From IMG/VR virus record IMGVR_UViG_3300029873_000387: a stretch of DNA of 64,000 nt; one strand, written 5' to 3'. The notes beneath the pieces were generated by a model. That model was given only the letters and a program-made list of their open reading frames with translations. It did no database searches and was not told the origin of the DNA. A program made the position numbers and the translations under genes. Shown here piece by piece: positions 9,320 to 38,964 of the stretch (within the stretch, counting starts at the first letter, position 1; each line of letters starts with the position of its first letter). Origin of the DNA: a virus. Taxonomy: Duplodnaviria > Heunggongvirae > Uroviricota > Caudoviricetes.

Positions 9320-9898
9320 TTATTCGCCGCAAAGATAGGTAGCTTCCATATCGGCAAGATGCAGCAGGACAGCAAGCTTACTCCGCTCGAAAATTTTGCC
9401 GATAAAAGCATTCCCGCCCTTTACTGCTGTGTCCCAACCGCCCATATGAGCGCGGATAGCGAGAATTTCCTCCGGCTCAAGATGCATGAAGTTCTGAATA
9501 AGGATGACAGACTTGTCTGCGTGCTCTCCGCAGGGGAACTTCTCATCGATTTCATAGACCTCTTTCTTGTACCACTGGCTGGTCTCCTCATCCTTGACAT
9601 TGCGAAAACCTTTCTTGTAGAAGTTGACCTTGCAAATGTCGTGAAGCAGCGAAACAACTGCGACAGTTTCTTCGGGGTAGCTGTTCTGCAATCCGGCGTT
9701 TGCCAGCCCTCTCTTTAAGCAGTCATACACATTCAGGGAATGCTGAAGAAGCCCACCTTCATGGCAGCCGTGAAACTTTGTGGATGCTGGTGCAACGAAG
9801 AAGTCGGAATCCTCCAACCATCGCAGAAGCATATCAGAGCCATCTCTGTGTACTGCGTTATTGTACACAGAAAGAAATCTCTCCTTTAACTCGCCCAT
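9320..9898 (-). CDS. HD-domain phosphohydrolase
   Basis: His/Asp motifs FHGCHEGGLLQHSLNVYD...VSLLHDICK. Start set at ATG 9898, which is preceded by an AAGGAG RBS. The ORF track begins at 9916. Confidence 0.7.
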   Translation of the reverse strand: MGELKERFLSVYNNAVHRDGSDMLLRWLEDSDFFVAPASTKFHGCHEGGLLQHSLNVYDCLKRGLANAGLQNSYPEETVAVVSLLHDICKVNFYKKGFRNVKDEETSQWYKKEVYEIDEKFPCGEHADKSVILIQNFMHLEPEEILAIRAHMGGWDTAVKGGNAFIGKIFERSKLAVLLHLADMEATYLCGE

Positions 9899-9981
9899 AG
9901 GAACCACTCCTTTCAATCTTGTATTTTATTTAATTGTGTTGATATATGTAAAGAGAAACCTGCTTGATGCAGGTTCTCTGA

Positions 9982-10503
9982 TTACCAATTTCGGTTGGAT
10001 TTGGGAATGGGATAAAGCTTTTCTGCCGTTGTCTTTGCATGGGACAACTTCATTTTACCGTATGTCTGCATCAAAAGCATGACTGCGATATTACGGTTTC
10101 CGTCCAATTCCAAATCCTGATACTGGCTTTTCCCATACAGGCTTCCGTTTGCGGTGCGGAATGGGAGCCTCTCTTCACCGACATTCTGCCAGCCAAAACG
10201 GCTGGTATAACCATAAGTACCATCGTACTTCTTGATAAGAGACTTCTTGGCTTCCTCATCGCAGAAAACAGGATTGTCTCGCTTAAAAGACTCGATACGC
10301 TCCCAAACCGCATCGTACATATCGGGATTCTTTACATCCTCCATCATACGCTGCTCCAGCTCGGGGTCGGTATGTTCTGCGATATATGCCTTGATTAAAC
10401 GGCTGCGCTCTTCGCCGACAGCTCGTTCACCAATCTCTTTGGCTGTTTCTGTGGCAAGCCAAGCACCGCCTGCAAAGATTGAAAACAAATCTCCGATACC
10501 CAT
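9982..10503 (-). CDS. Hypothetical protein
   Basis: 173-aa ORF co-oriented in the early operon. No motif recognised. Confidence 0.45.
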   Translation of the reverse strand: MGIGDLFSIFAGGAWLATETAKEIGERAVGEERSRLIKAYIAEHTDPELEQRMMEDVKNPDMYDAVWERIESFKRDNPVFCDEEAKKSLIKKYDGTYGYTSRFGWQNVGEERLPFRTANGSLYGKSQYQDLELDGNRNIAVMLLMQTYGKMKLSHAKTTAEKLYPIPKSNRNW

Positions 10504-10515
10504 TTTTTCACCGCC

Positions 10516-11466
10516 TTACATCAGGAAAGCCAGCTTCCAACGCTGGTAGTCTTCCATATAGTCTTTTTCAATTTTGTTTTGTTTGTGCTCCAGCTTGACC
10601 CTGCCTTTAACAACATATGTCCGCCCGGACATGAAATCAACTGCTGCGTCAGAGAAGTCCACTGGAATACCAGCCCGCTCTCTCTCGTACATCCGATAGA
10701 AAAGCCCGGACATCCATACTCTGTAGAAGCTTAACTGCTGCTTTGTCTTGCCATCCTGAAGTGCGGCGGCAGAGCGGTGCGAAAGCATAGAGCGAATGGA
10801 CATGGTTTTTGTGGTAGCCCGAACCCCACGCATAATGGTATCGCCAGGAACTCTGTCACGCCGAATTTCTTTTGCGTAATTCGGATGTTTGTACAAAAAA
10901 CCAGGAAGCTCCACCGCATTATGAAATGCAGGAAGGGATTCGCGGTAAAGAGGAACACAGTTCTCGCCGTACCGAATGGACATATCCATGAAGTCTACAT
11001 CCGAAGCTGTGATGCTCAGCGTATCTTCTTCCCGGATACCGGAAAACGCCATCCAGTAGTAGCAGCGGTAGAGATTATCGATAGTCTCGTCGTCCTCTGG
11101 GTCAAAGACCTCGTTGAGATACCGCTGGAGATGTAGCGGGCTTGTGACCATCTGCTTTCTGACCTTGTCAAGACCGACCGCTGTGATGCGAAGCATCCCA
11201 TCACAGGCACCCGGCACATTCATGGTGATACACCACTTGACATACTCTTTCAGTATCGTCAGCGACATCCATTGACTTTTGGAGCGCAATCCTACGATTT
11301 CATCAATCACAGGCTGTAGTTCCTCGGTGCTTTTCGTACACAAATCAGCACCCCATGCCTCTTCATGCGGCTCAAACGCGGTAAATACCGTTGTTGCCAC
11401 ATTCGCGGTATTGATGCTTTGTGTATAGTTGCGGATGAAGTTTATCTTTAACCCTTCATTGTACAT
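10516..11466 (-). CDS. Hypothetical protein; weak resemblance to the catalytic region of a tyrosine recombinase
   Basis: 316 aa. LSITASDVDFMDMSIRYGENCVPL resembles integrase box I (LRWSDIDF...V.L). Later H/R-containing segments follow (LSHRSAAALQDG...FYRVW). Divergent. Confidence 0.35.
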   Translation of the reverse strand: MYNEGLKINFIRNYTQSINTANVATTVFTAFEPHEEAWGADLCTKSTEELQPVIDEIVGLRSKSQWMSLTILKEYVKWCITMNVPGACDGMLRITAVGLDKVRKQMVTSPLHLQRYLNEVFDPEDDETIDNLYRCYYWMAFSGIREEDTLSITASDVDFMDMSIRYGENCVPLYRESLPAFHNAVELPGFLYKHPNYAKEIRRDRVPGDTIMRGVRATTKTMSIRSMLSHRSAAALQDGKTKQQLSFYRVWMSGLFYRMYERERAGIPVDFSDAAVDFMSGRTYVVKGRVKLEHKQNKIEKDYMEDYQRWKLAFLM

Positions 11467-11495: not shown

Positions 11496-11933
11496 TTATG
11501 CCGGAACGGCAGCATTCAAGCGGATTGCCTTATGCCAAACGGCAAGCAGCACCTCAGTATCCAGAAATGAAATAGCGGAGGTAGCGAGGAGATTTGCTGC
11601 TGCTATCTGCCGCATATAGCGGTTGGACAATGTGGTGATATACTGACCGATGCGTTCTTTCGACATACATTCGGGATTCTCGCACAGAACCATGCTATCC
11701 AAACGAAGGCCACTGTCAGCCGACTTGATAACAACATGGGTGGGCTGTCCGGCTTTCTTAATGGAACTGGTGAGGGGAAGGGCGATGATGTTGGGACTGT
11801 GTGCGTTGCCGACATTGTTCTGAAAAACAACACCGGGGCGCCAGCCATTTTGTTCGCAGCCGCTTCCTCCAAAGTTCATCAGATATACTTCCCCAATTTG
11901 AGGGACTCGCTGCTCATTATGATGAAAACCCAA
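11496..11933 (-). CDS. mazF: MazF/PemK/EndoA-family endoribonuclease toxin
   Basis: GEVYLMNFGGSGCEQNGWRPGVVFQNNVGNAHSPNIIALPLTSSIKKAGQPTHVVI aligns motif-for-motif with B. subtilis EndoA/MazF ([57 protein letters not shown]). TTG start with an AAGGAG RBS. Confidence 0.85.
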   Translation of the reverse strand: MGFHHNEQRVPQIGEVYLMNFGGSGCEQNGWRPGVVFQNNVGNAHSPNIIALPLTSSIKKAGQPTHVVIKSADSGLRLDSMVLCENPECMSKERIGQYITTLSNRYMRQIAAANLLATSAISFLDTEVLLAVWHKAIRLNAAVPA

Positions 11934-12579: not shown

Positions 12580-12662
12580 GCAAACAGTAGTTACGGTGTT
12601 AATGCTACCACAAATAATGGGTCGTGTCAACAACCAATCTCAAATTACGGAGGATAGTCATC

Positions 12663-13469
12663 ATGGACTTCGGCCAGCGCCTGAAAAATCTGCGTTTGGA
12701 GCGCGGATATACACAGCAGGATTTGAGTTCTGCTGTCGGAGTCTCTACCGTTGCTGTTAGGTCGTGGGAACACAACACGAAAAAGCCGAACATGGACGCC
12801 TTGATTGCGCTTGGGCGTTTTCTGAACACATCGATAGATACGCTTCTTGATATTCAGCCGAAAGGAAGCGAACAAAACTACACTTTTATACTCTCTCCCG
12901 CAGAGAAACGCTTCCTACAGAACTATCGTGAGCTTGATTCCCACGGCAAAAAAATCGTGAACACCGTATGCTCTTTGGAGAAAGAGCGTATTGACCTGGC
13001 GGCAAAACCGAAGAACCGCAGCAAAGTTATCCAGCTTGCAAATACCGAGAGAGAGCGGTATATCCCACGATATACTACACCATCCGCAGCCGGTACATCT
13101 GTCCCGCTTGACGGCGCTGACTTTGAGATGATTCTGGTGGACAACAGTGTCCCAGACGAAGCAGATTACGCCGTAAACATCCAGGGAAACAGTATGTTCC
13201 CATATATTCACGATGGCGACATGGTATATGTGAAAAAGGATGCGGAAATGGCTATCGGCGATGTCGGTATCTTCTGTGTGGATGGCGCAATGTACTGCAA
13301 GCAGTACTATGTAGATGAAAATGGGAACCTTGAGTTAGTATCCGCGAACCCAGAACTTCGTAACACGAATGTCTTTGTGTCGTCGGATAGCGGCAGCTCT
13401 GTAAAATGCTACGGAAAAGTTTTGATGGGCTTCAAGCTGGAACTGCCGGACTATTTGTTTGAGGAGTAA
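12663..13469 (+). CDS. CI/LexA-like phage repressor (XRE HTH + S24 peptidase)
   Basis: N-terminal HTH: LKNLRLERGYTQQDLSSAVGVSTVAVRSWE. C-terminal S24 motifs: IQGNSMFPYIHDGDMVYV...GDVGIFCVDGAMYCK. It is the only plus-strand gene in a minus-strand sea, divergent from the early genes. Confidence 0.85.
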   Translation: MDFGQRLKNLRLERGYTQQDLSSAVGVSTVAVRSWEHNTKKPNMDALIALGRFLNTSIDTLLDIQPKGSEQNYTFILSPAEKRFLQNYRELDSHGKKIVNTVCSLEKERIDLAAKPKNRSKVIQLANTERERYIPRYTTPSAAGTSVPLDGADFEMILVDNSVPDEADYAVNIQGNSMFPYIHDGDMVYVKKDAEMAIGDVGIFCVDGAMYCKQYYVDENGNLELVSANPELRNTNVFVSSDSGSSVKCYGKVLMGFKLELPDYLFEE

Positions 13470-15365: not shown

Positions 15366-16718
15366 TTAGGTTCGCTCAATAAGCTCCACCGCCTTTCGCA
15401 GCAAAACATCGTGTTCGTTGGGGAGCGTATCGAGAATAACCTCATCCAAAAGCTCGTGGAGGATGGCTCCGACTTGTCTTCCCTGCGGCACACCGAGAGA
15501 AATGATATCCTTGCCGTTGATTGCCAGGTCTTTTAAGGAAAAGCATTTTTCCTGTTCAAGTATCTCTGCCATCAGCACGCCGAGCGCCACGCACCGCTCG
15601 ATTCTGGACTCCTGTGTGCCCTCTGCATGAGCTTTGATATCCGCCATCCTGACATCCAATAGTTGAGAAAATCTGCGCTCGCCGATTTTGCAAAGCCATC
15701 GGCGAACTGTTTTCGTTGTTGGTTCAATGACGGTATCATGGTACAAAACAAGGTCAAGCACTTCCTGTTTTGTTGTGGTGTCAAAGCGCAGCCGTTCCAG
15801 AACAACTTTGGAAATATCATAACTATAGTTTCCGTGTCCGTGAAAATGGCCGCCGTTCTCATCCTCGGTATAACAGCAAGGCTTTCCGATGTCGTGCAGC
15901 AGCAGTGCTACCTTAACAGCAATGTCCTTGCCCGTATAGTTGGCAACTGCATGAGCGATGTGGTCATAAATGGTGTACTGGTGGTATTTGTTGTTCTGGT
16001 CAAAACCGATACACGGTTTCATCTCTGGAATGATAGTCGCAATCACATCGGGATAATCCAGCAGGACGGGGAGGACGCCGTTTCCGAGAAGCAGCTTGCA
16101 AAGTTCGCTGTGGATTCTTTCCGCAGCAATATTCGTAAGCCGCCATGCGTTATCATGAATGGCCTGAGCCGTGTTCTTCTCAATCGAAAACCCATAGACA
16201 GAAGCAAACCGTAATGCACGCAGAATGCGAAGTGCGTCTTCGCTGAATCGGTCATTCGGATTTCCGACGCAGCGAATAATGCCATTCTTCAAATCGTCTA
16301 CGCCATGAAAGGGGTCAATAAGACCGGCACCGTTATACGCCATTGCATTGATGGTAAAATCTCTGCGGGACAAATCCTGATAAATGCTCTCTGTGAATGT
16401 AACAGAATCAGGACGACGATTATCTGAGTAATCCCCATCAATGCGGAAGGTCGTAATTTCGTATTTGCCCGCTCGCTCCATATCAGCTGTGATTGTACCG
16501 TGCTTTAATCCTGTATCAATCGTCCGGACGCTACAGCGGTTGAGATACTCCTTAACCTCCTGCGGCGTAGCGGAGGTGCAGATATCCCAATCCTTTGGCT
16601 CTCTGCCAAGCAGACTGTCTCGAACGCAGCCGCCAACGACATAAGCCTCATGATTTTCATAGCGAAGCCCAAGAATAATCGCCTTTGCGCCCTTTGGAAT
16701 AGAAATCTTATACATCAA
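15366..16718 (-). CDS. cca: CCA-adding tRNA nucleotidyltransferase with C-terminal HD domain
   Basis: GGCVRDSLLGREPKDWDICTSATPQEV...GLKHGTITAD...RRDFTINAMAY is the class-II PolyA_pol head. HD domain: LLHDIGKP...GHFHGHGNYS. Confidence 0.85.
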   Translation of the reverse strand: MMYKISIPKGAKAIILGLRYENHEAYVVGGCVRDSLLGREPKDWDICTSATPQEVKEYLNRCSVRTIDTGLKHGTITADMERAGKYEITTFRIDGDYSDNRRPDSVTFTESIYQDLSRRDFTINAMAYNGAGLIDPFHGVDDLKNGIIRCVGNPNDRFSEDALRILRALRFASVYGFSIEKNTAQAIHDNAWRLTNIAAERIHSELCKLLLGNGVLPVLLDYPDVIATIIPEMKPCIGFDQNNKYHQYTIYDHIAHAVANYTGKDIAVKVALLLHDIGKPCCYTEDENGGHFHGHGNYSYDISKVVLERLRFDTTTKQEVLDLVLYHDTVIEPTTKTVRRWLCKIGERRFSQLLDVRMADIKAHAEGTQESRIERCVALGVLMAEILEQEKCFSLKDLAINGKDIISLGVPQGRQVGAILHELLDEVILDTLPNEHDVLLRKAVELIERT

Positions 16719-17730
16719 GAGACCTCCTGTTCACGCTGACCACAAACTCCTCAACGCGCTTCATATCAGGATGCTCCGGCAGGTTTGTGTTCCGCTTCGC
16801 ATAATCAAGACGCTTTTCAAAATCTGAAACCATCTCGAAAAACTCTGGACGGTAGGTGCCATCCTCCAGTTGATATTCTCCTCTGCGGATACTCATAAGA
16901 AGAGGCAGGTCGGCGCCACGATAAGTGATGATGTCACCTTTCTCAAGGATATCCAGACACATCAGATACAGGCGGATGAGATGCATGGCGTGCTTGTTGA
17001 GATGATTGTCATCCTTCTTATGGTTTCTGTGGTTCAGCTTTTCATAGGTTCCGACAACATTGGTCAAGTCGTTTAGAATGCTGTTGAACTCACGCACCGG
17101 ATACTTTGTAAGATGAATGTCTGCAAAAATCTCTCTGTCCAAATCCTCGCGTGAGCTCTCAGCCGTGTAAAGAGTGATGCCACCATTCTCAAAGACCCGA
17201 TACCTGCTTTCAAACGCCTTGACTGCGCTCTTCATAGAGTTTAGGATGTGCTCTTCTTTCCGTGCTTGCGGAAGTTTGTCTCTGGCGAGAGCATTTTCCA
17301 GCCGCCGCAGCTGCTGGTTGGCGTATCCTCCGAAAGAGTTCACCGCTCGCTTGGAAAGGAACAGCTTTCTGTTCTCAATCATTTCTCGCCCAATGTCAGT
17401 GCAAACCATGTACTGCTCCGGACGGCAACCCAGCATCTCAATCGTATTGGGATTGCAGTTCAGAAGCAAACTTACAAGCTTATTGAATGAGTAAACTGTG
17501 GTATCCGTTCCTGTATGAACGACCTGCTCGAAGTTAGATAGTCCCAGCAAATCGGAACGGCTGTTTAAGGCACAACCACGGATATCCACATCAGAGGTTT
17601 CAACATTTGTACCGTAGGAGTAACTGCCGCCCAGCGTGAGAAAGATGATTTTGCTTTTCAGGTGTTCATTACTTCTGAGAAATTCATACGCAGGGCTTTG
17701 CAGCATTTCTCTGATTTGTTCTGTGGTCAT
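16708..17730 (-). CDS. Nucleotidyltransferase-fold protein (minimal NTase GS...D.D motif)
   Basis: LTLGGSYSYGTNVETSDVDIRG. Start chosen at MTTEQ with a GGAGG RBS. Confidence 0.55.
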   Translation of the reverse strand: MTTEQIREMLQSPAYEFLRSNEHLKSKIIFLTLGGSYSYGTNVETSDVDIRGCALNSRSDLLGLSNFEQVVHTGTDTTVYSFNKLVSLLLNCNPNTIEMLGCRPEQYMVCTDIGREMIENRKLFLSKRAVNSFGGYANQQLRRLENALARDKLPQARKEEHILNSMKSAVKAFESRYRVFENGGITLYTAESSREDLDREIFADIHLTKYPVREFNSILNDLTNVVGTYEKLNHRNHKKDDNHLNKHAMHLIRLYLMCLDILEKGDIITYRGADLPLLMSIRRGEYQLEDGTYRPEFFEMVSDFEKRLDYAKRNTNLPEHPDMKRVEEFVVSVNRRSLDV

Positions 17731-17744
17731 GTTATCCCTCCTCA

Positions 17745-17999
17745 TCAAACATTCAGGGCAAGAGTATCATACATAGTAAGAATCCCACCGACAACAACAA
17801 ACTCGTATATGTGGTAAGCCGCTCCGGGTAGAACCCCATAGTTGTCGCTCTCATCAAAAACATTGAAGACTTGGCAACGCTCATCATGTGACAGTTCGAG
17901 AAACTCACTGCACTCTTCTTCCGAATCAAAGGAATACAGCGTGGCTTTTGTTGCCGACTCATCGAAACCAACATAGTCCGATACAAACAGCCTCTTCAC
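17745..17999 (-). CDS. Small hypothetical protein
   Basis: 84-aa ORF overlapping its neighbours by 4 nt at both ends (operon coupling). Confidence 0.4.
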   Translation of the reverse strand: MKRLFVSDYVGFDESATKATLYSFDSEEECSEFLELSHDERCQVFNVFDESDNYGVLPGAAYHIYEFVVVGGILTMYDTLALNV

Positions 18000-19165
18000 C
18001 TTGTCACCTCATTTGCCAATATCTCTATGCATGACGCAATGATATTCGCTGCGTCTACTACTTCGTCTGCTGTATTCATTCTGGAGAATGAAATTCGGAT
18101 AGAGTTTCTTGCTTCGTCTGCCGTCAAGCCCATCGCAGTTAGCACATGGCTTGGCTCAGCTTCATGGCTACGGCAAGCGGAGCCGGCAGAGATACAGATG
18201 TTCTTTCCGTCAAGCATCAAGAGCAGAGTTTGCCCATCAATGCCGGAAAGGCACAGGTTCAGCGTCTTCCCTGGATTGAGAACGGACGGGCCGTTGGTGC
18301 GGACAATATCAGTGCGCCCACTCTTTTTTAAGGCATCTGTCAATGCCATATAAAAACGCTGTTTAAGCGTAGAAACCCAGATACAATCCTCATGGAGACT
18401 CTTGGATGATATTTCACAGGCCGCACCAAAGCCTACAATACCGGCAACATTTTCTGTTCCGGCACGGAGTCCGAACTCCTGCTCCGCACCGCCAAAGATG
18501 ATGGGAGTCAACACACTTTTATCCTTGGCAAACAGCGTGCCGACGCCTTTTGGCCCGTGGATTTTGTGAGAAGAAAGCGAAAGAAAATCGCACCCGATTT
18601 TCTCCACATCGATGGGATGGCAACCGGCAGCCTGGACGCAATCTGTGTGGAACAGGATGCCACGCTTCATGCAAATCGTGCCGATTTCTTCAATCGGATT
18701 GACGGCGCCGGTCTCATTGTTGACATACATAACAGATACCAGCCCTGTCTTGGGGGTAATGGCATCTTCTACGCTCTGCACAAACACTTTTCCGTCGCTA
18801 TGTGCAGGCAGATATTCAATATAAAACTCGTCTTTTATAAGCGAATGAGCCGCTTTCAGAACGGAATCGTGTTCAATGGCAGAAACCAGAATATGCGTCT
18901 TTCCGATACTTTTAAGATATTCCTTTAAGCCCTGAAACACAAGACTATTTGCTTCGCTGCCGCCAGAAGTGAAGAGAATCTGCTCCGGCTTGGCATTAAG
19001 GAACTCAGCTACCTGAGCTCGTGCCTGTTTCACGGCTTCGCCTGCACTGCGTCCAAACTTATAGAGTGTACCAGCATTACCGTACTGAGTAGTCAGATAC
19101 GGCATCATGGCATCCAATACACGCTTGTCTATCTGCGTGGTGGCCGCATTGTCCAGATAAATCAT
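17996..19165 (-). CDS. Cysteine desulfurase (class-V aminotransferase, IscS/NifS-like)
   Basis: IYLDNAATTQ...FTSGGSEAN...SLSSHKIHGPKGVG, including the PLP-lysine SxHK motif. Start at MIYLDNAATT with an AAGGAG RBS. Confidence 0.8.
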   Translation of the reverse strand: MIYLDNAATTQIDKRVLDAMMPYLTTQYGNAGTLYKFGRSAGEAVKQARAQVAEFLNAKPEQILFTSGGSEANSLVFQGLKEYLKSIGKTHILVSAIEHDSVLKAAHSLIKDEFYIEYLPAHSDGKVFVQSVEDAITPKTGLVSVMYVNNETGAVNPIEEIGTICMKRGILFHTDCVQAAGCHPIDVEKIGCDFLSLSSHKIHGPKGVGTLFAKDKSVLTPIIFGGAEQEFGLRAGTENVAGIVGFGAACEISSKSLHEDCIWVSTLKQRFYMALTDALKKSGRTDIVRTNGPSVLNPGKTLNLCLSGIDGQTLLLMLDGKNICISAGSACRSHEAEPSHVLTAMGLTADEARNSIRISFSRMNTADEVVDAANIIASCIEILANEVTR

Positions 19166-19226
19166 GTGCGCCACGCTCCTTTCTTTTCTGTGTTGCATTG
19201 ATACAGCCCATCAAGCAGCTGCAAAA

Positions 19227-19838
19227 CTACTGTGCGGCAGGCGGTTCCGCCGCTTCATTTTTGTAAACAGCTTCAAGCCGCAGGATTTCATCCAGTGTTC
19301 GCGGGGTGTAATCCATCCACGGCATCATCGAGCCGACATTATACATAAGGCATGGGTGCCCGTATAATTCCTGCATCAGGAAGCGGTCATGCTCCATCAT
19401 GTTCCACTCAAAAGAGTTATGAACATGACCGTACAGATGATACCAGCCGTAATAGTGGTTCTTAAAACACGGGATTGGGTAATGACAGAGGACAACCTTA
19501 CGGTCAGAGTCCTCAACCTCCAGATACTCCGTGACCTTGACGAACTTTTTGAGAAACCGCCCATCGCTGCAGCGGTCATGATTACCCTTAATCAGAAATA
19601 CCTGTCCGTTCAACTGATTGAGGACAGAAATCGCTTCCTGCATATTGCACCAGAACATATCGCCAAGAACATAGACGGTGTCACCCGGATGAACGGCGGC
19701 GTTCCATCGCTCAACAAGTGCAGCGTTCATGTCCTCAACTGTTTTGAAAGGACGATTATCGAACGCCAGAATGTTATTATGGCCGTAATGCCAATCGGAG
19801 ATATATAGTTTTCTGTTAGCTGCTTGCTGCTCGGACAC
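19227..19838 (-). CDS. Calcineurin-like metallophosphoesterase
   Basis: Motifs ISDWHYGH, VLGDMF, KGNHD and GHVH. Confidence 0.75.
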   Translation of the reverse strand: MSEQQAANRKLYISDWHYGHNNILAFDNRPFKTVEDMNAALVERWNAAVHPGDTVYVLGDMFWCNMQEAISVLNQLNGQVFLIKGNHDRCSDGRFLKKFVKVTEYLEVEDSDRKVVLCHYPIPCFKNHYYGWYHLYGHVHNSFEWNMMEHDRFLMQELYGHPCLMYNVGSMMPWMDYTPRTLDEILRLEAVYKNEAAEPPAAQ

Positions 19839-20067
19839 CGTTTAACACCTCGATTCTATCTGCTGCTTGGAGCAGCACATTTTTAGGAATGCGGCAGTCA
19901 TCACCCATCTGCCCATTAGGTTGGGTGCTGCCGTACAGCCGAAGCTTTTCTACGAGACCCTTGTCAGGAAACTCATAGCGTTTCAGATACTCCGGTTTGC
20001 TGGCTGGGCATTCATAGCATGAACGGTTTTCATATACACCACAGCCGCCGCTTTTATAACACTTCAT
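19816..20067 (-). CDS. Small Cys-rich protein
   Basis: Start at MKCYKSGGCG with a strong GGAGG RBS. Five Cys. Confidence 0.4.
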   Translation of the reverse strand: MKCYKSGGCGVYENRSCYECPASKPEYLKRYEFPDKGLVEKLRLYGSTQPNGQMGDDCRIPKNVLLQAADRIEVLNGVRAASS

Positions 20068-20077
20068 AAAGTCCTCC

Positions 20078-20380
20078 TTAGAACGGCAGCTGAACACCGG
20101 GGTCTGCATCAAAAATCAGTTTCCTGACGGCGGCGGCAAACTCTTCCTCGTCGATTGCCTGAATATCATCGTAACGCAGGCGTTCAATCAGTTCATGAAC
20201 CGCTTTTGTAATGGCGGTCTCGACAATGATTTCCAAACGGTCAATGCGTTCATTGGCGCTTCCCACCATTCCCTGCATGATATTGTGGTATGCTGCAAGC
20301 TCTCGTTTGGATTCCCTGTTTTTCTCCATCAGTTCGTGAAGCATGATTTCCTGCTGCTGGACTTTCTCTTCCATTGTCAT
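20078..20380 (-). CDS. Hypothetical coiled-coil protein
   Basis: 100-aa ORF, 4-nt overlap with the Thg1-like gene. Confidence 0.45.
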   Translation of the reverse strand: MTMEEKVQQQEIMLHELMEKNRESKRELAAYHNIMQGMVGSANERIDRLEIIVETAITKAVHELIERLRYDDIQAIDEEEFAAAVRKLIFDADPGVQLPF

Positions 20381-21171
20381 AGCCGTCGCTCCACATACTC
20401 TCTGTCTTGTGTAAAGACAGGCGGTTCACGGTCAACGACCCAACGGCTTCTGGAAACCTCCACAGTCGCATCCCCGTTTAATACAGAAACGGCCTCTGTT
20501 ATCCTTGTTTTGATGCAACAGGAGCCACGCTTACAATCCGTGGGGAAATCATTCCAGTTGATATTGCGTTCTTTCCAAAGCATATCTTGGATTTTGTTGC
20601 AGTTCTTCCCGTGCAGCTCTCGCTGACTGAAATTCGCTTGTCCAACAGCTTCTATGCTGTTCCGTGTGGCATCCTGCTGACGCCAAATCAGACAGTTGCA
20701 GACCTCGCCCAGAGGAACGGTGAAAGCTCTGGCATCGAACATGGCAGTTTGGAACTTGCGGCGATAAACGGAAAGGTCGATGCCGCTGTCTTCTTTTTCC
20801 GTCTGCTCGGCAAACGCCTTATTGAACGCCAGCGTCGCCATTGATGCGGCAATGCTGCACATCTTCTGGACATTATAGCCGAACCATGCATCTGTACGAA
20901 TAGAGGCGTAATCGGTCAAAACCAATGTGATTTCATCAGACTGCGTGTATCCGAAGACGCAGCCCTGAATGTTGGCACACAGGAAACGCATGGTTTCCTG
21001 CATGGCAGACATAAGAACACGGTCGAAAGGCTTTCTCATTCCCTTTGTAAAGGTGTGAAAAGCCTTGCCGTCAATACGGATGATGACAGGAACACGACGG
21101 GTCAGGTAATTGCGTGAAACATACTCATACCGTTTCATCCTGTCGCCCAGCGAATCGCGTTGATTTCCCAT
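20377..21171 (-). CDS. tRNA-His guanylyltransferase (Thg1)-like protein
   Basis: MKRYEYVSRNYLTRRVPVIIRIDGKAFHTFTKGMRKPFD...GYTQSDEITLVL matches the Thg1 signature (KFEYV...VVRIDGRNFHKF...KPND...SDEYSFV). Confidence 0.8.
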   Translation of the reverse strand: MGNQRDSLGDRMKRYEYVSRNYLTRRVPVIIRIDGKAFHTFTKGMRKPFDRVLMSAMQETMRFLCANIQGCVFGYTQSDEITLVLTDYASIRTDAWFGYNVQKMCSIAASMATLAFNKAFAEQTEKEDSGIDLSVYRRKFQTAMFDARAFTVPLGEVCNCLIWRQQDATRNSIEAVGQANFSQRELHGKNCNKIQDMLWKERNINWNDFPTDCKRGSCCIKTRITEAVSVLNGDATVEVSRSRWVVDREPPVFTQDREYVERRL

Positions 21172-21207: not shown

Positions 21208-21265
21208 TTGACATCACGACCATTTGGTCGTATGATATAAGAAAAGCACGACCAATCGGTCGTGC
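21208..21265 (+). promoter_or_regulatory. Consensus sigma-70 promoter with two palindromic operators upstream of the HTH regulator gene
   Basis: TTGACA, a 17-bp spacer, then TATGAT (21208-21236). The spacer is the palindrome ACGACCAtTTGGTCGT. A second perfect palindrome GCACGACCaatcGGTCGTGC lies at 21246-21265. Confidence 0.55.
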
Positions 21266-21276
21266 TGAAAGGAGAT

Positions 21277-21591
21277 ATGATTATGATAGATTTTGATATG
21301 AACTTTCAAGACACCTATAAAACTCCCAGTGAAGACCTGTTGAGCAATGGTGAGCAGTGGTTCTTCCTTGAAACCGAAAAGGATATTTTGAAGAATCGGC
21401 GGGAGGAACTCGGGATGACCCAGCAGCAGGTGGCAGATGCTGCACACATTCAAGTTCGCCAATATCAGAGACTGGAAAACGGAGAGCGCAACATAAGCGG
21501 TGCCAGTATGAGGATTGGATTATCTGTGTGTGCCGTTTTGAAGCTTGACCCCTACCGCTTTATGCCAGAGTTCCGTTGGAACAAAGACTAA
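21277..21591 (+). CDS. XRE-family HTH transcriptional regulator
   Basis: LGMTQQQVADAAHIQVRQYQRLENGER. AAGGAG RBS before ATG 21277. The ORF track begins at 21262. Confidence 0.75.
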   Translation: MIMIDFDMNFQDTYKTPSEDLLSNGEQWFFLETEKDILKNRREELGMTQQQVADAAHIQVRQYQRLENGERNISGASMRIGLSVCAVLKLDPYRFMPEFRWNKD

Positions 21592-24251: not shown

Positions 24252-25031
24252 TTAACCTTTCATATCTTTCCAGTAGCAGTAGAGACACCCGTGGGGGCAT
24301 CTCGTCTTATGTTTCAGCAGTTCAGTTTTCCCTGCATAACACATACAGCCCTTTCGTTGATAGCCAGCCCCGCTTGATTCTGCATCCTCAGAAAATCCGA
24401 GCAGATTGAGGTCGTAGTCTGAAATGCAGCCACAGGCAATCGGCTCCGTAAGACCGGGTTCTGCACAGGACTCAATTCGGAGAACTTTGCCGTTATCCAG
24501 CCCTTCCCAGAACTGCTTTGCTTGCCGCAGCATATCGTCCACTTTTGAAAGCTGTGCTTGAGACGGAGCGAAACCGCTATCGCCATAGGGAAGCGGCAAT
24601 CCAGCCTTTTTGAACCGGCTTCTTGCGTGTGGATACATATCAATAACGCTCACTCTGTATCGCTGAAATCCCATTTCCATAAAGGAAATCATTGTACGGT
24701 ATGCAACTGAAAGTCCTTTCTCTGTGGGGATGATGGGGTCGATGCGAATGACGATTTTCTCCATCGGGAACCCAGCTTTAACCAACTCCATAATTGCGGC
24801 AAACTCCTCGTATGGAGTTGGTACATTAGGTTCCAAAGCAGAGTGCCCGTATCCAGTGATTGTTGCATGGACAATGAGTCTGTCTTTGTGTTCAAGAGCG
24901 GCATCGAAGAAATCCGGCGACACACACTTCGTAATTAGAACAGCAGCATCAACTCTGTCTAATTTCTCGACCCAAGACAAATCAACGCCTGCGTCTCCCG
25001 CTTCTGTAATTCCAATCTTGTATAATGCCAT
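24252..25031 (-). CDS. Cys-rich protein with a C-terminal CX3CX2C cluster (possible Fe-S or radical-SAM-like enzyme)
   Basis: 259 aa ending ...GCMCYAGKTELLKHKTRCPHGCLYCYW. No confident family assignment. Confidence 0.45.
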   Translation of the reverse strand: MALYKIGITEAGDAGVDLSWVEKLDRVDAAVLITKCVSPDFFDAALEHKDRLIVHATITGYGHSALEPNVPTPYEEFAAIMELVKAGFPMEKIVIRIDPIIPTEKGLSVAYRTMISFMEMGFQRYRVSVIDMYPHARSRFKKAGLPLPYGDSGFAPSQAQLSKVDDMLRQAKQFWEGLDNGKVLRIESCAEPGLTEPIACGCISDYDLNLLGFSEDAESSGAGYQRKGCMCYAGKTELLKHKTRCPHGCLYCYWKDMKG

Positions 25032-29641: not shown

Positions 29642-30727
29642 TCAATCCTTTTCTGCCAACAGGAAGTCAGGATTGATGACCTTGAAGCTGATGTTGCTTT
29701 TGACATTTCTCATGACAACGCCCTCGCGCTTCTGACCGTTACGAACCACAGAGTATCCTTTGGAATACTCCACCAGCTCTGCGATGGTATCCGGCAGCGT
29801 TTTGCCCTCTTCAACAATGGGAACGGAGCAAATGCCGTAAGGCGCCAGCAGCTCCTTGATTTCCGCAGTCGTGCATTTGCGGTCAGGGAAAATCAGGTTG
29901 AACGCAAACAATTCATAGCCGCTGATGTGGTACTTGTTGCCCTGAATCTGGTTGCCGCAAATCTCACCCTGTAAAACGATGGTTTCATAATCACCGATGA
30001 GCTGCCGCAGCACATTCTCAATATTGTACTTCTTGGCAACTGTCCAGTAGGAACTGTTGTCCGGTGTACCGAGATAGATATTGCGGCTGCACACGCCGAA
30101 CTCATACTTGCGTCTGGAAACCTTACGCAGATAGTAAGTCGCTGACTGACCGTCCATCTTCTCCGTAACAGAAAACTCTGTTCCCTTGTTACGCTCTGCC
30201 TCAAAGAGCGCAGTAAGATTCTGGATGCGAGTCTCATCGGTCTTAACAATCCAATCAGGGAAACCACCCTTGCGCTTGGACTTCATGAACAGCTTACGAT
30301 ACCACTTGAAGCGCATAAGGAATCGAACCAGTGCGCTTTTAGGTTTGGCGGGTTGCTTGGTCAGCAGCTGCGCCTCCTGCTGTGCTTCAGGGTCATATTT
30401 CTTGATACCCAAAACATCGGTCACATCGGCACCCAAATCGGCGGGAGCGCCATTCGGCAGAATGGACAGCGGGAGAACCAAGCCCTGACTGACCTGACCA
30501 CGAAGCTTAATGGTGCGAACACGGAACTTACGGTCACGCAAAAACTCAAACTCCGGTCTCTCTGGAACAATGGAATCAACTTCGATATAGACGATGTGTT
30601 CCCCAGTGTGGAACTCGCCCTTCTGGACAACGCACTCCCATCCGTCAACCTGAGCAACCTCGATGCGGTCTGCTCCTGCAATCGGACGGAGGGTTGTAAT
30701 CTCACGAATAGTAGCTAAGTGTCGCAT
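29642..30727 (-). CDS. ATP-dependent RNA ligase (Rnl family; DraRnl-like N-terminal domain + nucleotidyltransferase domain)
   Basis: N-terminus MRHLATIREITTLRPIAGADRIEVAQVDGWECVVQKGEFHTGEHIVYIEVDS. Lysine-adenylylation motif TEKMDGQSATYY (KxDG). Confidence 0.75.
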   Translation of the reverse strand: MRHLATIREITTLRPIAGADRIEVAQVDGWECVVQKGEFHTGEHIVYIEVDSIVPERPEFEFLRDRKFRVRTIKLRGQVSQGLVLPLSILPNGAPADLGADVTDVLGIKKYDPEAQQEAQLLTKQPAKPKSALVRFLMRFKWYRKLFMKSKRKGGFPDWIVKTDETRIQNLTALFEAERNKGTEFSVTEKMDGQSATYYLRKVSRRKYEFGVCSRNIYLGTPDNSSYWTVAKKYNIENVLRQLIGDYETIVLQGEICGNQIQGNKYHISGYELFAFNLIFPDRKCTTAEIKELLAPYGICSVPIVEEGKTLPDTIAELVEYSKGYSVVRNGQKREGVVMRNVKSNISFKVINPDFLLAEKD

Positions 30728-33030: not shown

Positions 33031-34323
33031 TTATCCGAAGCTGACCTCGGTTTTATCGGTTCGGATAGAAATAAACACCGGGAACTGAAGACTCTCAGCA
33101 CCGGTGTTTTTATCACTGGATATTTCCTTGTACTTTACTTCGCAAAGCAAACCCGGCAGGTCATCTTTTCCTTGCCAAAATGTTGCTCGCTGCTCGTCGG
33201 TGAACCCGGAGCCGACCTTGACTTCATTCCCCTTATAGTCGAGTACAAGCGCACCTAAAGTCCCTGCCAATCTTCCGCTACCTTCTTCGCAGCGGAGGAT
33301 ACGCAAGTCCATCGTGTAAAAGCGTTTGACTTTCAGGATTCCATTGTGTCGTCTGCACTGGTAGGGAACATCAAGGTTTACCATCAGTCCCTCTTTATCC
33401 TCACGAACCATCTGTTCCAACAGTTCACTGATTTTGCTCTGGTCTTTTCCATGATACAGAACCGGCAGGATACTGACACGGCCATCCTGCGGAATGAAGC
33501 GGTGAAGCTGGTCTAAGAAAGCACGACGATAGCCATAGCAGCCATCGCTCTGCCCCCGGTGGAACTCTTCAACCGTCAGAACATCAAAAATCGTGTAGCA
33601 AATCACCGTTTTATCACCATCGTCTGAGTTGATAATACCGGTAGCTTTGCGGAACGCCTCGTTATCTGAGAGACTGCCCTTCTCACGAAGAGTCAGCTCG
33701 CCGTCAAATACATAGCTATCTTCTTCATCAAAACAGAGAGCATCCAGAATATGGTCAAGTCCTTCATAGGGGACTCCACTTCTTGCGTACAGCCTGCCTT
33801 TGTAATAGGTCGCCCGGACACCGTTCAGCTTTTGTGTTAGCCAGAACTCCGTGCCCTCCTTCAAAGGATACTTATCAATGGGGTACGCCTGCTGAACTTC
33901 CCATTCTGGAATCAGATTGGGGATAACCTTGTTCACGGTCTTTGCCGTGACGCCCAGCCTGAGTGTCTTGGAAAGAAGCTTGATATAAACATCAGCTTCA
34001 TCCGGCGGGCTGCTCTGAACGAATGCACAAACCTGATACACCGTACCGGCGTCCAATGCTTTTCTTTTAGACAACAGTTCGCAGACAGAAAAGATGTCTG
34101 TCATTGTCAGTGTGATGGCTGAGTCATACCGGGTAGGAGAGCGAAGCGTTTGCTCCGAAATCTTATAGGTGAGCATCGGGTTGAGCGCGTAATATAAAAA
34201 ATTACGGAAGTTCGCATCGTCTTGGAACTCCCGTAATAGCTGGGTCTTTCTTATCGAGCCGTTCGCTTCCTGCAAACGGCGTAATTTTACGATAGAATCT
34301 GACAGCGGCGTTGCAGCAATCAA
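33031..34323 (-). CDS. ATP-dependent DNA ligase (nucleotidyltransferase superfamily)
   Basis: Motif I KLNGVRATY (KxDGxR variant), motif III FDGELTL, motif IV EGLMVN, motif V LKVKRF. Confidence 0.7.
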   Translation of the reverse strand: MIAATPLSDSIVKLRRLQEANGSIRKTQLLREFQDDANFRNFLYYALNPMLTYKISEQTLRSPTRYDSAITLTMTDIFSVCELLSKRKALDAGTVYQVCAFVQSSPPDEADVYIKLLSKTLRLGVTAKTVNKVIPNLIPEWEVQQAYPIDKYPLKEGTEFWLTQKLNGVRATYYKGRLYARSGVPYEGLDHILDALCFDEEDSYVFDGELTLREKGSLSDNEAFRKATGIINSDDGDKTVICYTIFDVLTVEEFHRGQSDGCYGYRRAFLDQLHRFIPQDGRVSILPVLYHGKDQSKISELLEQMVREDKEGLMVNLDVPYQCRRHNGILKVKRFYTMDLRILRCEEGSGRLAGTLGALVLDYKGNEVKVGSGFTDEQRATFWQGKDDLPGLLCEVKYKEISSDKNTGAESLQFPVFISIRTDKTEVSFG

Positions 34324-35525
34324 TCTTCATCACCCGCCTTGAAATTATAAATGGGCTTGATAATGGCATCGACGGTTACAGCTGGCTCGATATTACCGAC
34401 AATATCATCCATGCCCTTATAGGCCATCGGGCATTCATCCAGCGTACTGCGCCCAACGGAGGTCGTGTAGATACCCGCCATCTGCTTTTTGAATTCGGAT
34501 ACAGTGAAAGCTTCTTTTGCAGCGCTGCGGCTCATCAGCCGACCGGCACCATGAGGAGCGGAGAAGTTCCAATCCGGATTGCCCTTGCCAGTGCAAAGCA
34601 GGCTGCCATCACGCATATTGATGGGAATCAACAGACGCTCACCGGTTTGTGCAGACACAGAACCCTTACGCAAAATCATGTTATCCACATCAATGTAGTT
34701 GTGAATCGTTGTAAATTGCTCAATCACATGGAATCCCATTCCTTTGACAATGGTATCCATCATCGCCTGACGGTTCAGCCCAGCAAAACGCTGTGCAATT
34801 TTCATATCATGAAGATACTGTTCAAAGAGCTCACCCTCCACATATGCAAGCGATTTGGGAACGGGTGAATGCTTAGATTTCATGGACTTCAGCACTGCTT
34901 GAATCTCTTTCTGGCGGCCATCCGCTTTCAGCTGTTCAATAGCCGCCTCAACCTCTTCATGGCTATAAGAGGTCAGCGCCTTGAAAGCAGCCTCCTGATA
35001 GAAGTTGGCGATTTCTAAACCCAGATGACGGCTGCCGGAGTGGACAACGATATAGATATTCCCATCATCGTCCTTGTTCGCCTCAATAAAATGATTGCCG
35101 CCACCCAATGTACCGATACTGTGATAGGCACGGTCAGTGTTGACCTTTTTTGTGCAGCACAACTGCGACAAATCGATTTCTTTTGCGTAACGATGCGGTG
35201 CGGAACGGATTGCAAAGCCAGACGGAATGCCTTCACGGATAACCTTATCCAACTTCTGCGGTTCGATGTGGGTCTCTTTCAGGCGGATGGTTTCCATACC
35301 GCATCCAATATCAACGCCAACAAGGTTTGGGCAAATCTTATCCTTGATAGTCATGGTGGTTCCGATGGTGCATCCAGCGCCGGCATGAATATCCGGCATC
35401 ATACGAACCTTGCTTCCCTCGACATAGGGTTGGTTCAAGAGATTGATTACCTGAGAAATGGATTCGCTATCGACCACATCGGTAAACACTTTTGCCGAAG
35501 CGTATTTCCCCTGAAGCTCAAGCAT
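34320..35525 (-). CDS. rtcB: RtcB RNA-splicing ligase (3'-phosphate/5'-OH)
   Basis: PDIHAGAGCTIGTT, VDIGCGME and NHAGAGRLMSRS are RtcB metal/GMP-site motifs. Confidence 0.9.
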   Translation of the reverse strand: MLELQGKYASAKVFTDVVDSESISQVINLLNQPYVEGSKVRMMPDIHAGAGCTIGTTMTIKDKICPNLVGVDIGCGMETIRLKETHIEPQKLDKVIREGIPSGFAIRSAPHRYAKEIDLSQLCCTKKVNTDRAYHSIGTLGGGNHFIEANKDDDGNIYIVVHSGSRHLGLEIANFYQEAAFKALTSYSHEEVEAAIEQLKADGRQKEIQAVLKSMKSKHSPVPKSLAYVEGELFEQYLHDMKIAQRFAGLNRQAMMDTIVKGMGFHVIEQFTTIHNYIDVDNMILRKGSVSAQTGERLLIPINMRDGSLLCTGKGNPDWNFSAPHGAGRLMSRSAAKEAFTVSEFKKQMAGIYTTSVGRSTLDECPMAYKGMDDIVGNIEPAVTVDAIIKPIYNFKAGDED

Positions 35526-36926: not shown

Positions 36927-37002
36927 TGGAGCTGGTGACAGGGCTCGAACCCGCGACCCTCGGAGTACAAAACCGATGCTCTACCAACTGAGCTACACCA
37001 GC
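36927..37002 (-). tRNA. tRNA-Thr (anticodon UGU)
   Basis: Cloverleaf GCTGGTG-TAGCTCAGTTGGTAGAGC-A-TCGGT-TTTGTAC-TCCGA-GGGTC-GCGGG-TTCGAGC-CCTGT-CACCAGC-T-CCA. CCA is encoded. Confidence 0.85.
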
Positions 37003-37005
37003 AAA

Positions 37006-37081
37006 TGGAGCTGGAACTCGGAATCGAACCGAGAACCTACGCTGTACGAGAGCGTTGCTCTACCAGTTGAGCTATTCCAGC
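37006..37081 (-). tRNA. tRNA-Thr (anticodon CGU)
   Basis: GCTGGAA-TAGCTCAACTGGTAGAGC-A-ACGCT-CTCGTAC-AGCGT-...-GGTTCGATTCC-...-TTCCAGC-T-CCA. Confidence 0.85.
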
Positions 37082-37270
37082 ATTGGTCGGCTTCCCGCTT
37101 AGATTGTCACACGCTCATGTGCGGCTGGCGCCCCGCAAGCATACCAACCGGCCACTCTTGGGCTAAATCACAAGGGAGACGCATCTCCTCGCGCAGTTTT
37201 CAGCGGGCATTGTTATTCTCTGTGAGGTAAGCCGATAATCTCTCACATCATCTGGGCGCTACCCAGCCTC

Positions 37271-37321
37271 TGGCACGGACGGTTGGGAATCGAACCCACC
37301 ACAAGCGATTTTGGAGACCGC
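37271..37321 (-). ncRNA. tRNA-like 3' fragment (anticodon arm with CCA anticodon + TTCGATT T-loop + CCA end) lacking a pairing 5' half
   Basis: Minus-strand RNA GGCGAG-GCGGT-CTCCAAA-ATCGC-...-GTGGG-TTCGATT-CCCAA-CCGTCCG-TGCCA. No upstream sequence was found that pairs with the acceptor 3' strand. Confidence 0.3.
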
Positions 37322-37626
37322 CTCGCCAGCCTTGGAACATTCGCCCGTATAAGTGGCAGACTATTGCGAACTTGCGGTCTGCCAGCGCGACTCTTTGGTA
37401 ACGCAGGTTTGTATCTGCGTTGCAGATTCCGTCTCTACAGGCTCTGCACAGCCCAGCCACTTTCTATGTGTCGGCACACCGGCATAATTCTGGAGAAACA
37501 TTAGTCCTTTCCACGGCAATGCCATGCCGATGGCGCAGATGGCGGGGATTTGCACCCCGCATGACCTTACAGCGCATCGGTCTCCGCCATTTGAGAGGTC
37601 GGCATCCTGTCTGTAATTTGTAGCGT

Positions 37627-38907: not shown

Positions 38908-38964
38908 GCTTTCGCAATTATCCATTACAGGAGATGGCGGTTTAACCTCAAACCGCCAAAGGGA

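Follow-up and report, generated by a model that had tools for sequence, protein, structure and literature searches.

A predicted tRNA-end repair set in a temperate SPβ-like phage of gut Clostridia

A block of eight tightly packed genes at positions 15366-21171 of a 64,000-nucleotide viral DNA (IMG/VR record IMGVR_UViG_3300029873_000387; the whole 64-kb stretch analysed is called the window here) probably constitutes a tRNA-end repair set carried by a temperate, SPβ-like phage of gut Clostridia. Three of its products, a Thg1-like protein, the nucleotidyltransferase RlaP and a CCA-adding enzyme, retain complete catalytic motifs by sequence and are encoded in one translationally coupled string, with two RNA ligases, RtcB and an Rnl5-type enzyme, encoded in the same genome. 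A role in tRNA/RNA repair for the Thg1-like protein, RlaP, the CCA enzyme with its HD domain, RtcB and Rnl is supported by its match to the biochemistry of these families and to comparative genomics (PMC7824862, PMC2904730, PMC12776372). The original prediction for this DNA had described the entire block as a tRNA/RNA end-repair toolkit. That description stands for the Thg1-like, RlaP and CCA genes, whereas comparative data set apart its other two enzymes, a metallophosphoesterase (MPE1) and a cysteine desulfurase, as backbone genes of the lineage.

In the list of open reading frames (ORFs), the eight genes are co-directional on the minus strand and mostly overlap, with junctions, read from the CCA end to the Thg1 end, of -11, -4, -4, +28, -23, -35 and -4 nt:

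15366-16718, minus strand: class II CCA-adding enzyme with a C-terminal HD phosphohydrolase domain (Pfam, motifs, structures)
16708-17748, minus strand: RlaP, RNA-ligase-associated Pol-beta nucleotidyltransferase (PF10127, phrog_388)
17745-17999, minus strand: ORF of 84 amino acids (aa), function not assigned
17996-19198, minus strand: group I (NifS/IscS-like) cysteine desulfurase, class-V aminotransferase (PF00266)
19227-19838, minus strand: calcineurin-like metallophosphoesterase MPE1 (PF12850, PF00149, phrog_547)
19816-20112, minus strand: Cys-rich small ORF
20078-20380, minus strand: 100-aa ORF overlapping the Thg1 stop by 4 nt
20377-21171, minus strand: Thg1-like protein (TLP), bacterial type (PF04446, phrog_4717, BtTLP)

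Profile searches with Pfam, NCBIfam and PHROG bore out the five enzyme genes originally named, with their families, coordinates and strand, and a motif check found catalytic motifs in all five. The catalytic (palm) domain of Thg1 is recognised well above threshold (PF04446, 1.7e-31, 109.3 bits against a cutoff of 29.2; phrog_4717, 2.4e-94). The nearest solved structure of a Thg1-like protein is BtTLP (4KGK, 7.4e-66, aligned over residues 6-262); the eukaryotic Thg1 structures 3WBZ and 3OTB match at about 1e-6. In the alignment, residues E16, R32, D34, S78, D79 and E80 correspond to E12, R28, D30, S74, D75 and E76 of BtTLP, all of which are functionally important in that enzyme (PMC3701042). 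They comprise the three carboxylates (BtTLP D30, D75 and E76, equivalent to hTHG1 D29, D76 and E77) and the nucleoside triphosphate (NTP) contacts E12 and R28, and the six are invariant in 23 phage or prophage homologues that are 41-72% identical. The HINNLYN motif, with which eukaryotic Thg1 recognises the tRNA-His anticodon, was not found in the phage protein, which has no H.NN motif either and reads TRNSIEA in the aligned segment. The protein is thus like BtTLP (4KGK/4KGM; PMC3701042) in keeping the tested catalytic and NTP-binding residues and in the absence of the eukaryotic motif, and it differs from BtTLP by a 20-30-residue insertion around residues 125-140 and 222-240. Homology places the ORF inside the Thg1/TLP family, on the bacterial TLP branch. 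Given that the characterised activity of BtTLP is template-dependent 5'-end repair of truncated tRNA (PMC3701042), the phage protein is predicted to be a bacterial-type TLP, a template-dependent 3'-5' RNA polymerase for tRNA 5'-end repair.

The suggestion that a Thg1-like protein is particularly unusual on a phage did not hold. The family has its own PHROG, a tblastn search found it in 164 INPHARED phage records (including Bacillus 46, Prevotella 15, Caulobacter 13 and Mycobacterium 11), and the literature contains a 2010 record of Thg1 for phage 201phi2-1 and a 2021 record for jumbo phages. In one 146-kb viral contig (L020, IMGVR_UViG_3300021387_000648), the Thg1 homologue at 10001-10855 carries one in-frame stop codon, which may indicate a pseudogene, a sequencing error or stop-codon recoding.

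At the other end of the block, Pfam recognises in the CCA enzyme the PolyA_pol head (PF01743, 1.9e-39), PolyA_pol_RNAbd (8.6e-11), tRNA_NucTran2_2 (1.9e-9) and an HD domain (4.8e-7; PF01966, 30.5 bits against a cutoff of 22), the last with its metal ligands H246...H275-D276...D. The motifs GGCVRD (29-34), DWD (43-45), RRD (118-120, motif B) and EDALR (160-164, motif D) are present, and the bacterial CCA structures 6IBP and 1MIV match at about 1e-53. The best NCBIfam model, NF009814, scores 279.6 bits, about 10 short of its cutoff of 290, and the other models fall far below theirs. By these features the protein is classed as a CCA-adding enzyme of class II with an HD domain, a choice among CCA, A-adding and poly(A) specificity being beyond the sequence evidence here.

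The second nucleotidyltransferase of the block, RlaP, is equally well recognised (PF10127, 1.5e-17, 64.5 bits against a cutoff of 23; phrog_388, 2e-54) and has the Pol-beta active site GGS40-42...D53-V-D55 (motif at 40-55); a comparison by sequence with solved structures gave no match. Members of the RlaP family add one or two nucleoside monophosphates to the 3'-OH ends of damaged RNA, an addition that proved necessary for over-damaged or over-trimmed tRNA to be aminoacylated again (PMC12776372). The gene is tied to RNA ligases in several genomes. Here, RtcB and Rnl5 are encoded 12-17 kb away; in L010, one of about 30 related contigs compared, an Rnl gene of the same strand precedes RlaP by about 1.4 kb; and the Clostridioides phage AR1086-1, which carries the closest RlaP, has it near kptA and rtcB. 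RlaP occurs in 277 INPHARED records, often in the same genomes as a Thg1-like gene, and the two are found together in the cultured phages Bcp1, BM15, Kioshi, Hobo and 0524phi7-1. In the relatives, RlaP always lies directly upstream of the CCA gene and overlaps it. Because RlaP is translationally coupled to the CCA enzyme, and not to RtcB/RtcA, this arrangement suggests that it works on the 3' acceptor ends of tRNAs, either in addition to anticodon loops or in their place.

The three small ORFs of the block (17745-17999, 19816-20112 and 20078-20380) have no family match in Pfam or PHROG, and NCBIfam was also negative for 20078-20380. The 84-aa ORF is found, at 87-99% identity, in close relatives only and does not stand between the desulfurase and RlaP genes in L048. 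The Cys-rich ORF, which measures 83 aa from an internal Met at 20067 and has cysteines C3, C9, C17 and C20, has homologues before the phosphoesterase in L050 (49%) and beside DUF1848 in L015 and L057 (40%). The 100-aa ORF is 96-100% identical in close relatives, with weak homologues after Thg1 in L021 and L050.

Cassettes and backbone among related contigs

The related contigs fall into the following arrangements:

L001-L009, L038-L042 and L053 (94-100% identical): the arrangement of the window
L013, L014 and L021: the window order with insertions
L048 and L049: MPE1-desulfurase-RlaP-CCA, without Thg1
L050: RlaP truncated
L054: Thg1-RtcB ... MPE1-desulfurase, without RlaP or CCA, RtcB standing directly after Thg1
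L063-L066, a very common relative: MPE1 ... desulfurase only, with Thg1, RlaP and CCA all absent
L010: Rnl-RlaP-CCA-Thg1, contiguous except for a 1.4-kb gap after Rnl, with no desulfurase within 10 kb and MPE1 9 kb away

From this comparison of sequences, RlaP and the CCA enzyme form an inseparable, overlapping pair, and Thg1 and RlaP-CCA behave as accessory cassettes that are gained and lost and that, when rearranged, land beside other RNA-repair genes. MPE1 and the desulfurase, on the same grounds, are part of a conserved backbone of the lineage next to the immunity region, persisting without any repair gene. HNH and recombinase genes are inserted inside the block in some relatives, and L048 also carries PTH2 and NADAR. 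Overall, the repair reading gains support because RlaP-CCA and Thg1 relocate beside RNA-repair genes, because the genes are tightly packed, because four of the seven RNA-repair genes fall within eight consecutive genes of 100 (p ~0.02 in a rough permutation), and because Thg1 and RlaP co-occur.

The same mosaicism has also to be weighed as evidence for no functional unit at all, that is, for an accessory-gene hot spot by the immunity region, in which the juxtaposition is positional and the genes act independently, the desulfurase serving Fe-S enzymes, for example the radical SAM and DUF1848 proteins. The MPE1 and desulfurase genes alone (L063-L066), the blocks without Thg1 (L048), without RlaP-CCA (L054) or without the desulfurase (L010), the HNH and recombinase insertions, the mixed neighbours of Thg1 in other phages and the presence of putative Fe-S proteins in the phage (radical SAM 48208-49026, DUF1848 24252-25031 and the Cys-rich ORF) are all in keeping with it. 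However, RlaP and CCA always occur as one overlapping pair, Thg1 moves next to CCA (L010) or RtcB (L054) in the variants, and the overlaps of start and stop codons along the string imply co-translation; we regard a purely positional juxtaposition as rather improbable.

The desulfurase itself is clearly recognised (PF00266, 2.3e-83, 280.7 bits; phrog_12787, 3.1e-113), with its pyridoxal phosphate-binding lysine in SSHK (209-212) and its catalytic cysteine in GSAC (339-342); gene callers elsewhere place its start at 19165 (389 aa). All NCBIfam models stay under their cutoffs (NifS 395 against 531, DndA 352 against 480 and IscS 332 against 548 bits). Its proposed place in the kit as a sulfur donor for tRNA thiolation could not be upheld. 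A Pfam scan of about 48 of the larger window ORFs, together with a PP-loop motif search of four ORFs beside a ThiF-family gene, recognised no PP-loop tRNA-thiolating enzyme of the MnmA/ThiI/TtuA type, and no defining desulfurase partner (NifU/IscU, MnmA/ThiI or DndCDE) was recognised among the scanned ORFs. Moreover, the desulfurase gene is kept in L063-L066 without Thg1, RlaP or CCA and is missing from the L010 repair cluster. Because it persists without the repair genes, and because these cluster without it, its position is one of backbone synteny, not of demonstrated functional coupling.

Possible roles for the enzyme are the supply of Fe-S clusters to the radical SAM and DUF1848 proteins of the phage, or thiolation via host enzymes. 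The window encodes, on the minus strand, three putative Fe-S or Cys-cluster proteins, namely a DUF1848 protein (24252-25031), a radical SAM protein of no recognised subfamily (48208-49026) and the 83-aa four-Cys protein (19816-20067), and it is possible that these are its clients. The gene may be uncommon in phages, because the best INPHARED 'phage' matches inspected are fragments of bacterial chromosomes, and such 'Bacteriophage sp.' matches were dropped as comparators for that reason. Four of them (L044-L047; GenBank MT835487, MT835511, MT835613 and MT836788) carry genes for glycolysis, phosphotransferase-system and ATP-binding-cassette transporters and an Rrf2-desulfurase-NifU / MnmA locus, and by this gene content they look like bacterial chromosome fragments, not phages. 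A sulfur relay from the desulfurase through a ThiF-like E1 (41311-41988) and a ubiquitin-like carrier was also considered and rejected, with no PP-loop thiolase recognised among the ORFs scanned and the neighbour of the ThiF gene being a JAB/MPN protease. A 73-aa ORF after the CCA gene ends in Gly-Gly, an ending that is not conserved in its homologues.

MPE1 (PF12850, 4.3e-7; PF00149; phrog_547, 1.3e-43) has the motifs DWH, GDMF, GNHD and GHVH, and its best and only solved relative is Aquifex aq_1665 (2.6e-9), an uncharacterised protein. Healing of 3'-phosphate or 2',3'-cyclic phosphate ends is a possible, unproven activity for it. Participation of both backbone enzymes in repair is possible (3'-end healing by one, sulfur for re-thiolation or for Fe-S enzymes from the other), but the comparative data do not indicate it.

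Distant partners and the proposed repair

Further genes that bear on RNA repair, together with a DNA ligase gene, lie elsewhere in the window:

29642-30727, minus strand: ATP-dependent RNA ligase of DraRnl/NgrRnl (Rnl5) type with an N-terminal OB domain (PF21189, PF09414)
33031-34323, minus strand: ATP-dependent DNA ligase (PF01068, PF14743)
34320-35525, minus strand: RtcB 3'-phosphate/5'-OH RNA ligase, overlapping the DNA ligase gene by 4 nt (PF01139)
37627-38328, minus strand: second calcineurin-like metallophosphoesterase, MPE2 (PF00149, 5.3e-12; phrog_1649, 7.7e-41)
36927-50122, minus strand: ten dispersed tRNA genes, Thr x2, Trp, Leu x3, Ser, Lys, Ala and 'Asn' (ARAGORN)

Two RNA ligases of different chemistries and an ATP-dependent DNA ligase had been predicted, and profile and structure matches establish the presence of all three. 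The Rnl5-type ligase exceeds the cutoff of TIGR02306 (166 against 151 bits), matches NgrRnl (5COT, 2.5e-49) and has its KMDG motif at 190; the DNA ligase matches the solved ATP-dependent DNA ligases 6RAU and 6RAR at about 1e-21, with KLNG as motif I. In RtcB (PF01139, 5.9e-63, 214 bits), the segments MPDIHAGAG, GGNHF, HSGSR and PHGAGR align to P. horikoshii RtcB, covering the GMP-histidine and the metal ligands, and the protein is classed by sequence as a divergent RtcB because the NCBIfam equivalog cutoffs are not reached. Two additional phosphoesterases had also been expected. One of calcineurin type, MPE2, is present and has no significant sequence similarity to MPE1; a second of this type was not found, and an HD-domain protein at 9320-9916 may be the one that was meant.

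Ten tRNA genes are indeed called by ARAGORN, but they do not form the array that had been described, being spread across 13 kb between protein genes. Eight of the ten reach the Rfam tRNA gathering score in a scan of the whole window. The 'Trp-CCA' call (37271-37348, minus strand, 78 nt) is below gathering, with only a weak match to the tRNA-Sec model (30.7 bits), and the 'Asn-GTT' call (50033-50122, minus strand, 90 nt), which reaches gathering only when scanned locally under laxer filters, carries a long extra arm that is unusual for tRNA-Asn. All ten have an encoded CCA, intact 5' ends and fully paired acceptor stems, and no tRNA-His is among the ARAGORN calls in the window.

These tRNAs bear on whether the genes serve maturation or housekeeping, the CCA enzyme and the TLP processing phage tRNAs (CCA addition, and G-1 addition on a phage tRNA-His) and the desulfurase feeding their thio-modification. 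BtTLP-type enzymes do add G-1 opposite C73 in vitro, the ten genes include a tRNA-Lys(UUU), which normally needs s2U34, and housekeeping desulfurase genes of Firmicutes adjoin mnmA and nifU. Nevertheless, the encoded CCA and paired stems in ten out of ten exclude both tRNA 5'-editing and CCA-less phage tRNAs as the reason for having a TLP and a CCA enzyme; a tRNA-His is missing from the 64-kb window, to which the search was confined within the genome, and no tRNA-thiolating enzyme was recognised among the ORFs scanned. Since the tRNAs encode CCA with perfect stems, and since the window has no tRNA-His, the two enzymes are better understood as serving repair, and a maturation role is quite unlikely.

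The biochemistry of the families suggests how repair might proceed. Of the two ligases, RtcB connects a 5'-OH end with a 3'-phosphate or 2',3'-cyclic-phosphate end, whereas Rnl5 acts on duplex RNA and closes 3'-OH/5'-phosphate nicks. Restoring 3' ends is the work of CCA enzymes, and TLPs refill 5' ends against the acceptor-stem template. In the proposed scheme, host or competitor ribonucleases would cut or trim tRNAs, and RtcB would rejoin cyclic-phosphate or 3'-phosphate ends to 5'-OH ends directly. Where nucleotides had been lost, RlaP would add one or two to the 3'-OH and the CCA enzyme would restore the 3' CCA, its HD domain perhaps removing 3' phosphates. The TLP would then refill missing 5' nucleotides with the 3' strand of the acceptor stem as template, Rnl5 would seal the remaining 3'-OH/5'-phosphate nicks in duplex regions, and the ten phage tRNAs would top up the tRNA pool. 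As for counter-defence against specific systems (PrrC/RloC, PARIS, retrons), we only infer it.

A more specific version, which we hold to be doubtful, is a two-sided pathway for rebuilding acceptor ends, with RlaP and the CCA enzyme (HD domain included) for the 3' side, the TLP for the 5' strand and the desulfurase restoring thio-modifications on repaired or newly made tRNAs. RlaP would here replace lost discriminator or acceptor 3' nucleotides, the HD domain or a phosphoesterase would remove blocking 3' phosphates or pyrophosphates, and the targets would be toxins that hit acceptor ends, not anticodon loops (acceptor-stem nucleases, MenT-type toxins, CapRel-type 3'-end modifiers). If true, the pathway would represent a kind of repair that no phage has yet been shown to use.

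Several points weigh against a tRNA-end repair set. To our knowledge, the physiological substrate of bacterial TLPs, BtTLP included, is not known. Among 21 other phage lineages, the genes around Thg1 are of mixed kinds (nucleotide and NAD metabolism, DNA ligases), and Pfam found no recurrent RNA-repair partner within 6 kb of Thg1 among 146 neighbour ORFs; a general operonic partner of phage Thg1 was therefore rejected, so that the clustering seen here is specific to this lineage and may in part stem from a common hot spot for insertions. Further, no polynucleotide kinase was recognised in the window, where the matches of a Walker-A search were limited to the helicase, an unrelated ATPase and a single match probably due to chance, and no scanned ORF had a kinase match by Pfam or PHROG; the 5'-phosphate needed by the TLP and Rnl5 is therefore without an identified source here. 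Finally, in a temperate phage such as this one, the genes might benefit the lysogen and not the lytic cycle.

Temperate setting, regulation and other features

The window encodes a DnaE-like polymerase, primase, DnaB, an exonuclease, ERF, ThyX, a LexA/S24-type repressor, a PemK toxin and tyrosine recombinases, along with a YonO-type single-subunit RNA polymerase of 867 aa (59558-62161, plus strand; Pfam RdRP match). Just past its right end, identical contigs including L051/L052 carry YonV-, YonG- and YonD-family genes and a terminase. The YonO-type polymerase, the Yon-family genes, the repressor and the recombinases are why the element is assigned, from its gene content, to the SPβ-like temperate phages; it is a prophage of a Eubacteriales bacterium. 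A 426-kb contig from a Eubacteriales metagenome-assembled genome (MAG) contains the Thg1 region at 100% identity, and relatives at 61-67% reside in genomes of Dysosmobacter segnis and Flavonifractor sp. An82 and in Dorea and Ruminococcus MAGs; a megablast search of INPHARED returned no DNA-level relative. The repair block sits in the accessory/early region of this temperate gut-Clostridia phage.

The block may be controlled by a divergent regulator gene and by two palindromes that lie between this gene and the Thg1 start:

21216-21231 and 21248-21263: two perfect palindromes, ACGACC-N4-GGTCGT
21262-21591, plus strand: divergent helix-turn-helix (HTH) regulator of XRE type (PHROG transcriptional-regulator matches; Pfam HTH_3 in the identical gene of L038-L042)

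The palindromes have no other copies in the window, where 0.13 would be expected by chance, and are candidate operators. The Thg1 ATG is preceded by AGGAGG 8 nt away, and promoter-like hexamers occur on both strands of the intergenic region. Control of the block probably comes from this divergent promoter region, with its pair of palindromic operators, and from the XRE-type regulator.

This setting bears on whether the kit protects the lysogen from competitor ribotoxins (contact-dependent inhibition, colicin-like toxins, type VI secretion RNases), or reverses damage by the phage's own PemK/MazF-type endoribonuclease about 4 kb away, and is not a lytic counter-defence. The element is temperate, with its repressor (12624-13469, plus strand), recombinases, PemK toxin (11496-11933, minus strand) and identity to a bacterial MAG contig, and the block's own divergent regulator and operators are compatible with expression outside the lytic programme. 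On the other hand, the block shares its strand and its long gene run with the DNA polymerase, primase and helicase, which suggests expression in the lytic cycle, and these gene families are also found in lytic Bacillus and jumbo phages. Service to the lysogen instead of lytic growth is, on balance, unlikely. The PemK/MazF-type toxin and LexA/S24-type repressor genes stand 2-4 kb from the repair block, and a phage RNase beside RNA-repair genes could mean self-inflicted, reversible RNA damage.

Other features of the window lie apart from the repair genes. The ThiF-family E1-like gene (41311-41988, minus strand) has weak similarity to the anti-phage 6A-MBL cap2_3 model. Directly upstream of it, in a minus-strand locus spanning 41311-44499, is a gene for a 328-aa protein with no Pfam match, in which E..HSHx7SxxD is invariant in 35 homologues and whose AlphaFold model matches Rpn11, CSN5, P. 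furiosus JAMM1 and Citrobacter BubCD; motif and model together mark it as a JAB/MPN metalloprotease. A 509-aa ORF without assigned function lies upstream of that gene. The ThiF-like E1 and the JAB/MPN deubiquitinase look like a phage ubiquitin-like module separate from the desulfurase, and no ubiquitin-like protein was identified with these genes. Among the tRNA genes, a reverse transcriptase (38965-40122, minus strand) has as its best match the retron St85-family model (4.7e-52, below cutoff), and a 62-nt direct repeat occurs three times at its flanks (38556-38617, 38843-38904 and 40366-40427; 71-79% identical); a diversity-generating retroelement was rejected, as only this triple repeat and no template/variable-repeat pattern is seen. 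The Rfam motifs RAGATH-36 (52602-52730), RAGATH-4 (54517-54651) and RAGATH-16 (54828-54899), all on the minus strand and above gathering, form a 2.3-kb cluster near a LuxR/sigma-like regulator gene.

Comparison with known systems

Every family described here, and their combination, is already in the literature, and no new category is opened. The significance of the block lies in a compact, sequence-intact RNA-repair kit in abundant temperate SPβ-like phages of human-gut Clostridia, identical proteins occurring on many metagenome contigs. Some relatives reside in cultured hosts (Dysosmobacter, Flavonifractor), which could allow genetics, and the co-translation of TLP, RlaP and the CCA enzyme makes this phage a reasonable system in which to ask what tRNA damage the three repair jointly.

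The framework behind phage RNA-repair complements is said to go back to Burroughs and Aravind in 2016. Large and jumbo phages were later found to carry tRNAs, RtcB, ATP-grasp RNA ligases, RlaP, the CCA enzyme and, sporadically, Thg1, a set read as repair of tRNAs attacked by second-line immunity of the host (Iyer, Anantharaman, Krishnan, Burroughs & Aravind 2021; PMC7824862). The inventory and the logic are the same here. Unlike the jumbo phages, however, the phage of the window is temperate, SPβ-like and about 100-140 kb in size, belongs to gut Clostridia and has Thg1, RlaP and CCA in one overlapping string; its window gave no sign of a polynucleotide kinase, Ro/TROVE or PTH2.

The link between a PF10127 nucleotidyltransferase and RNA ligases recalls the bacterial RtcB-RlaP-RtcA operons (Pseudomonas PfRlaP/PaRlaP) and NrdC.11 of phage T4. 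In such systems RlaP is proposed to put back, ahead of ligation, the nucleotides that 'smart' ribotoxins, RloC for example, have taken away (Carruthers, Fatma & Huang 2025 preprint, PMC12776372). In contrast to these operons, RlaP of the window is coupled to the CCA enzyme and not to RtcB/RtcA, and RtcA is absent. Like Pnkp and Rnl1 of T4, which answer the PrrC anticodon nuclease, the set would be a phage-encoded heal-and-seal response to tRNA cleavage; unlike in T4, there is no Pnkp-type kinase, HAD phosphatase or Rnl1, and sealing would use RtcB, directly, or Rnl5.

A parallel among cultured phages comes from the Bacillus myophages (Bcp1, BM15, Hobo, Kioshi, 0524phi7-1 and relatives), which have GenBank-annotated Thg1-like (46-50% identical) and RlaP (~28% identical) proteins. 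These phages are lytic, their two genes lie about 20 kb apart, and no cysteine desulfurase was detected in them. Particular to the case studied here are the type of phage and its host group, the co-translated TLP ... RlaP-CCA string, and the backbone phosphoesterase and desulfurase embedded within it.

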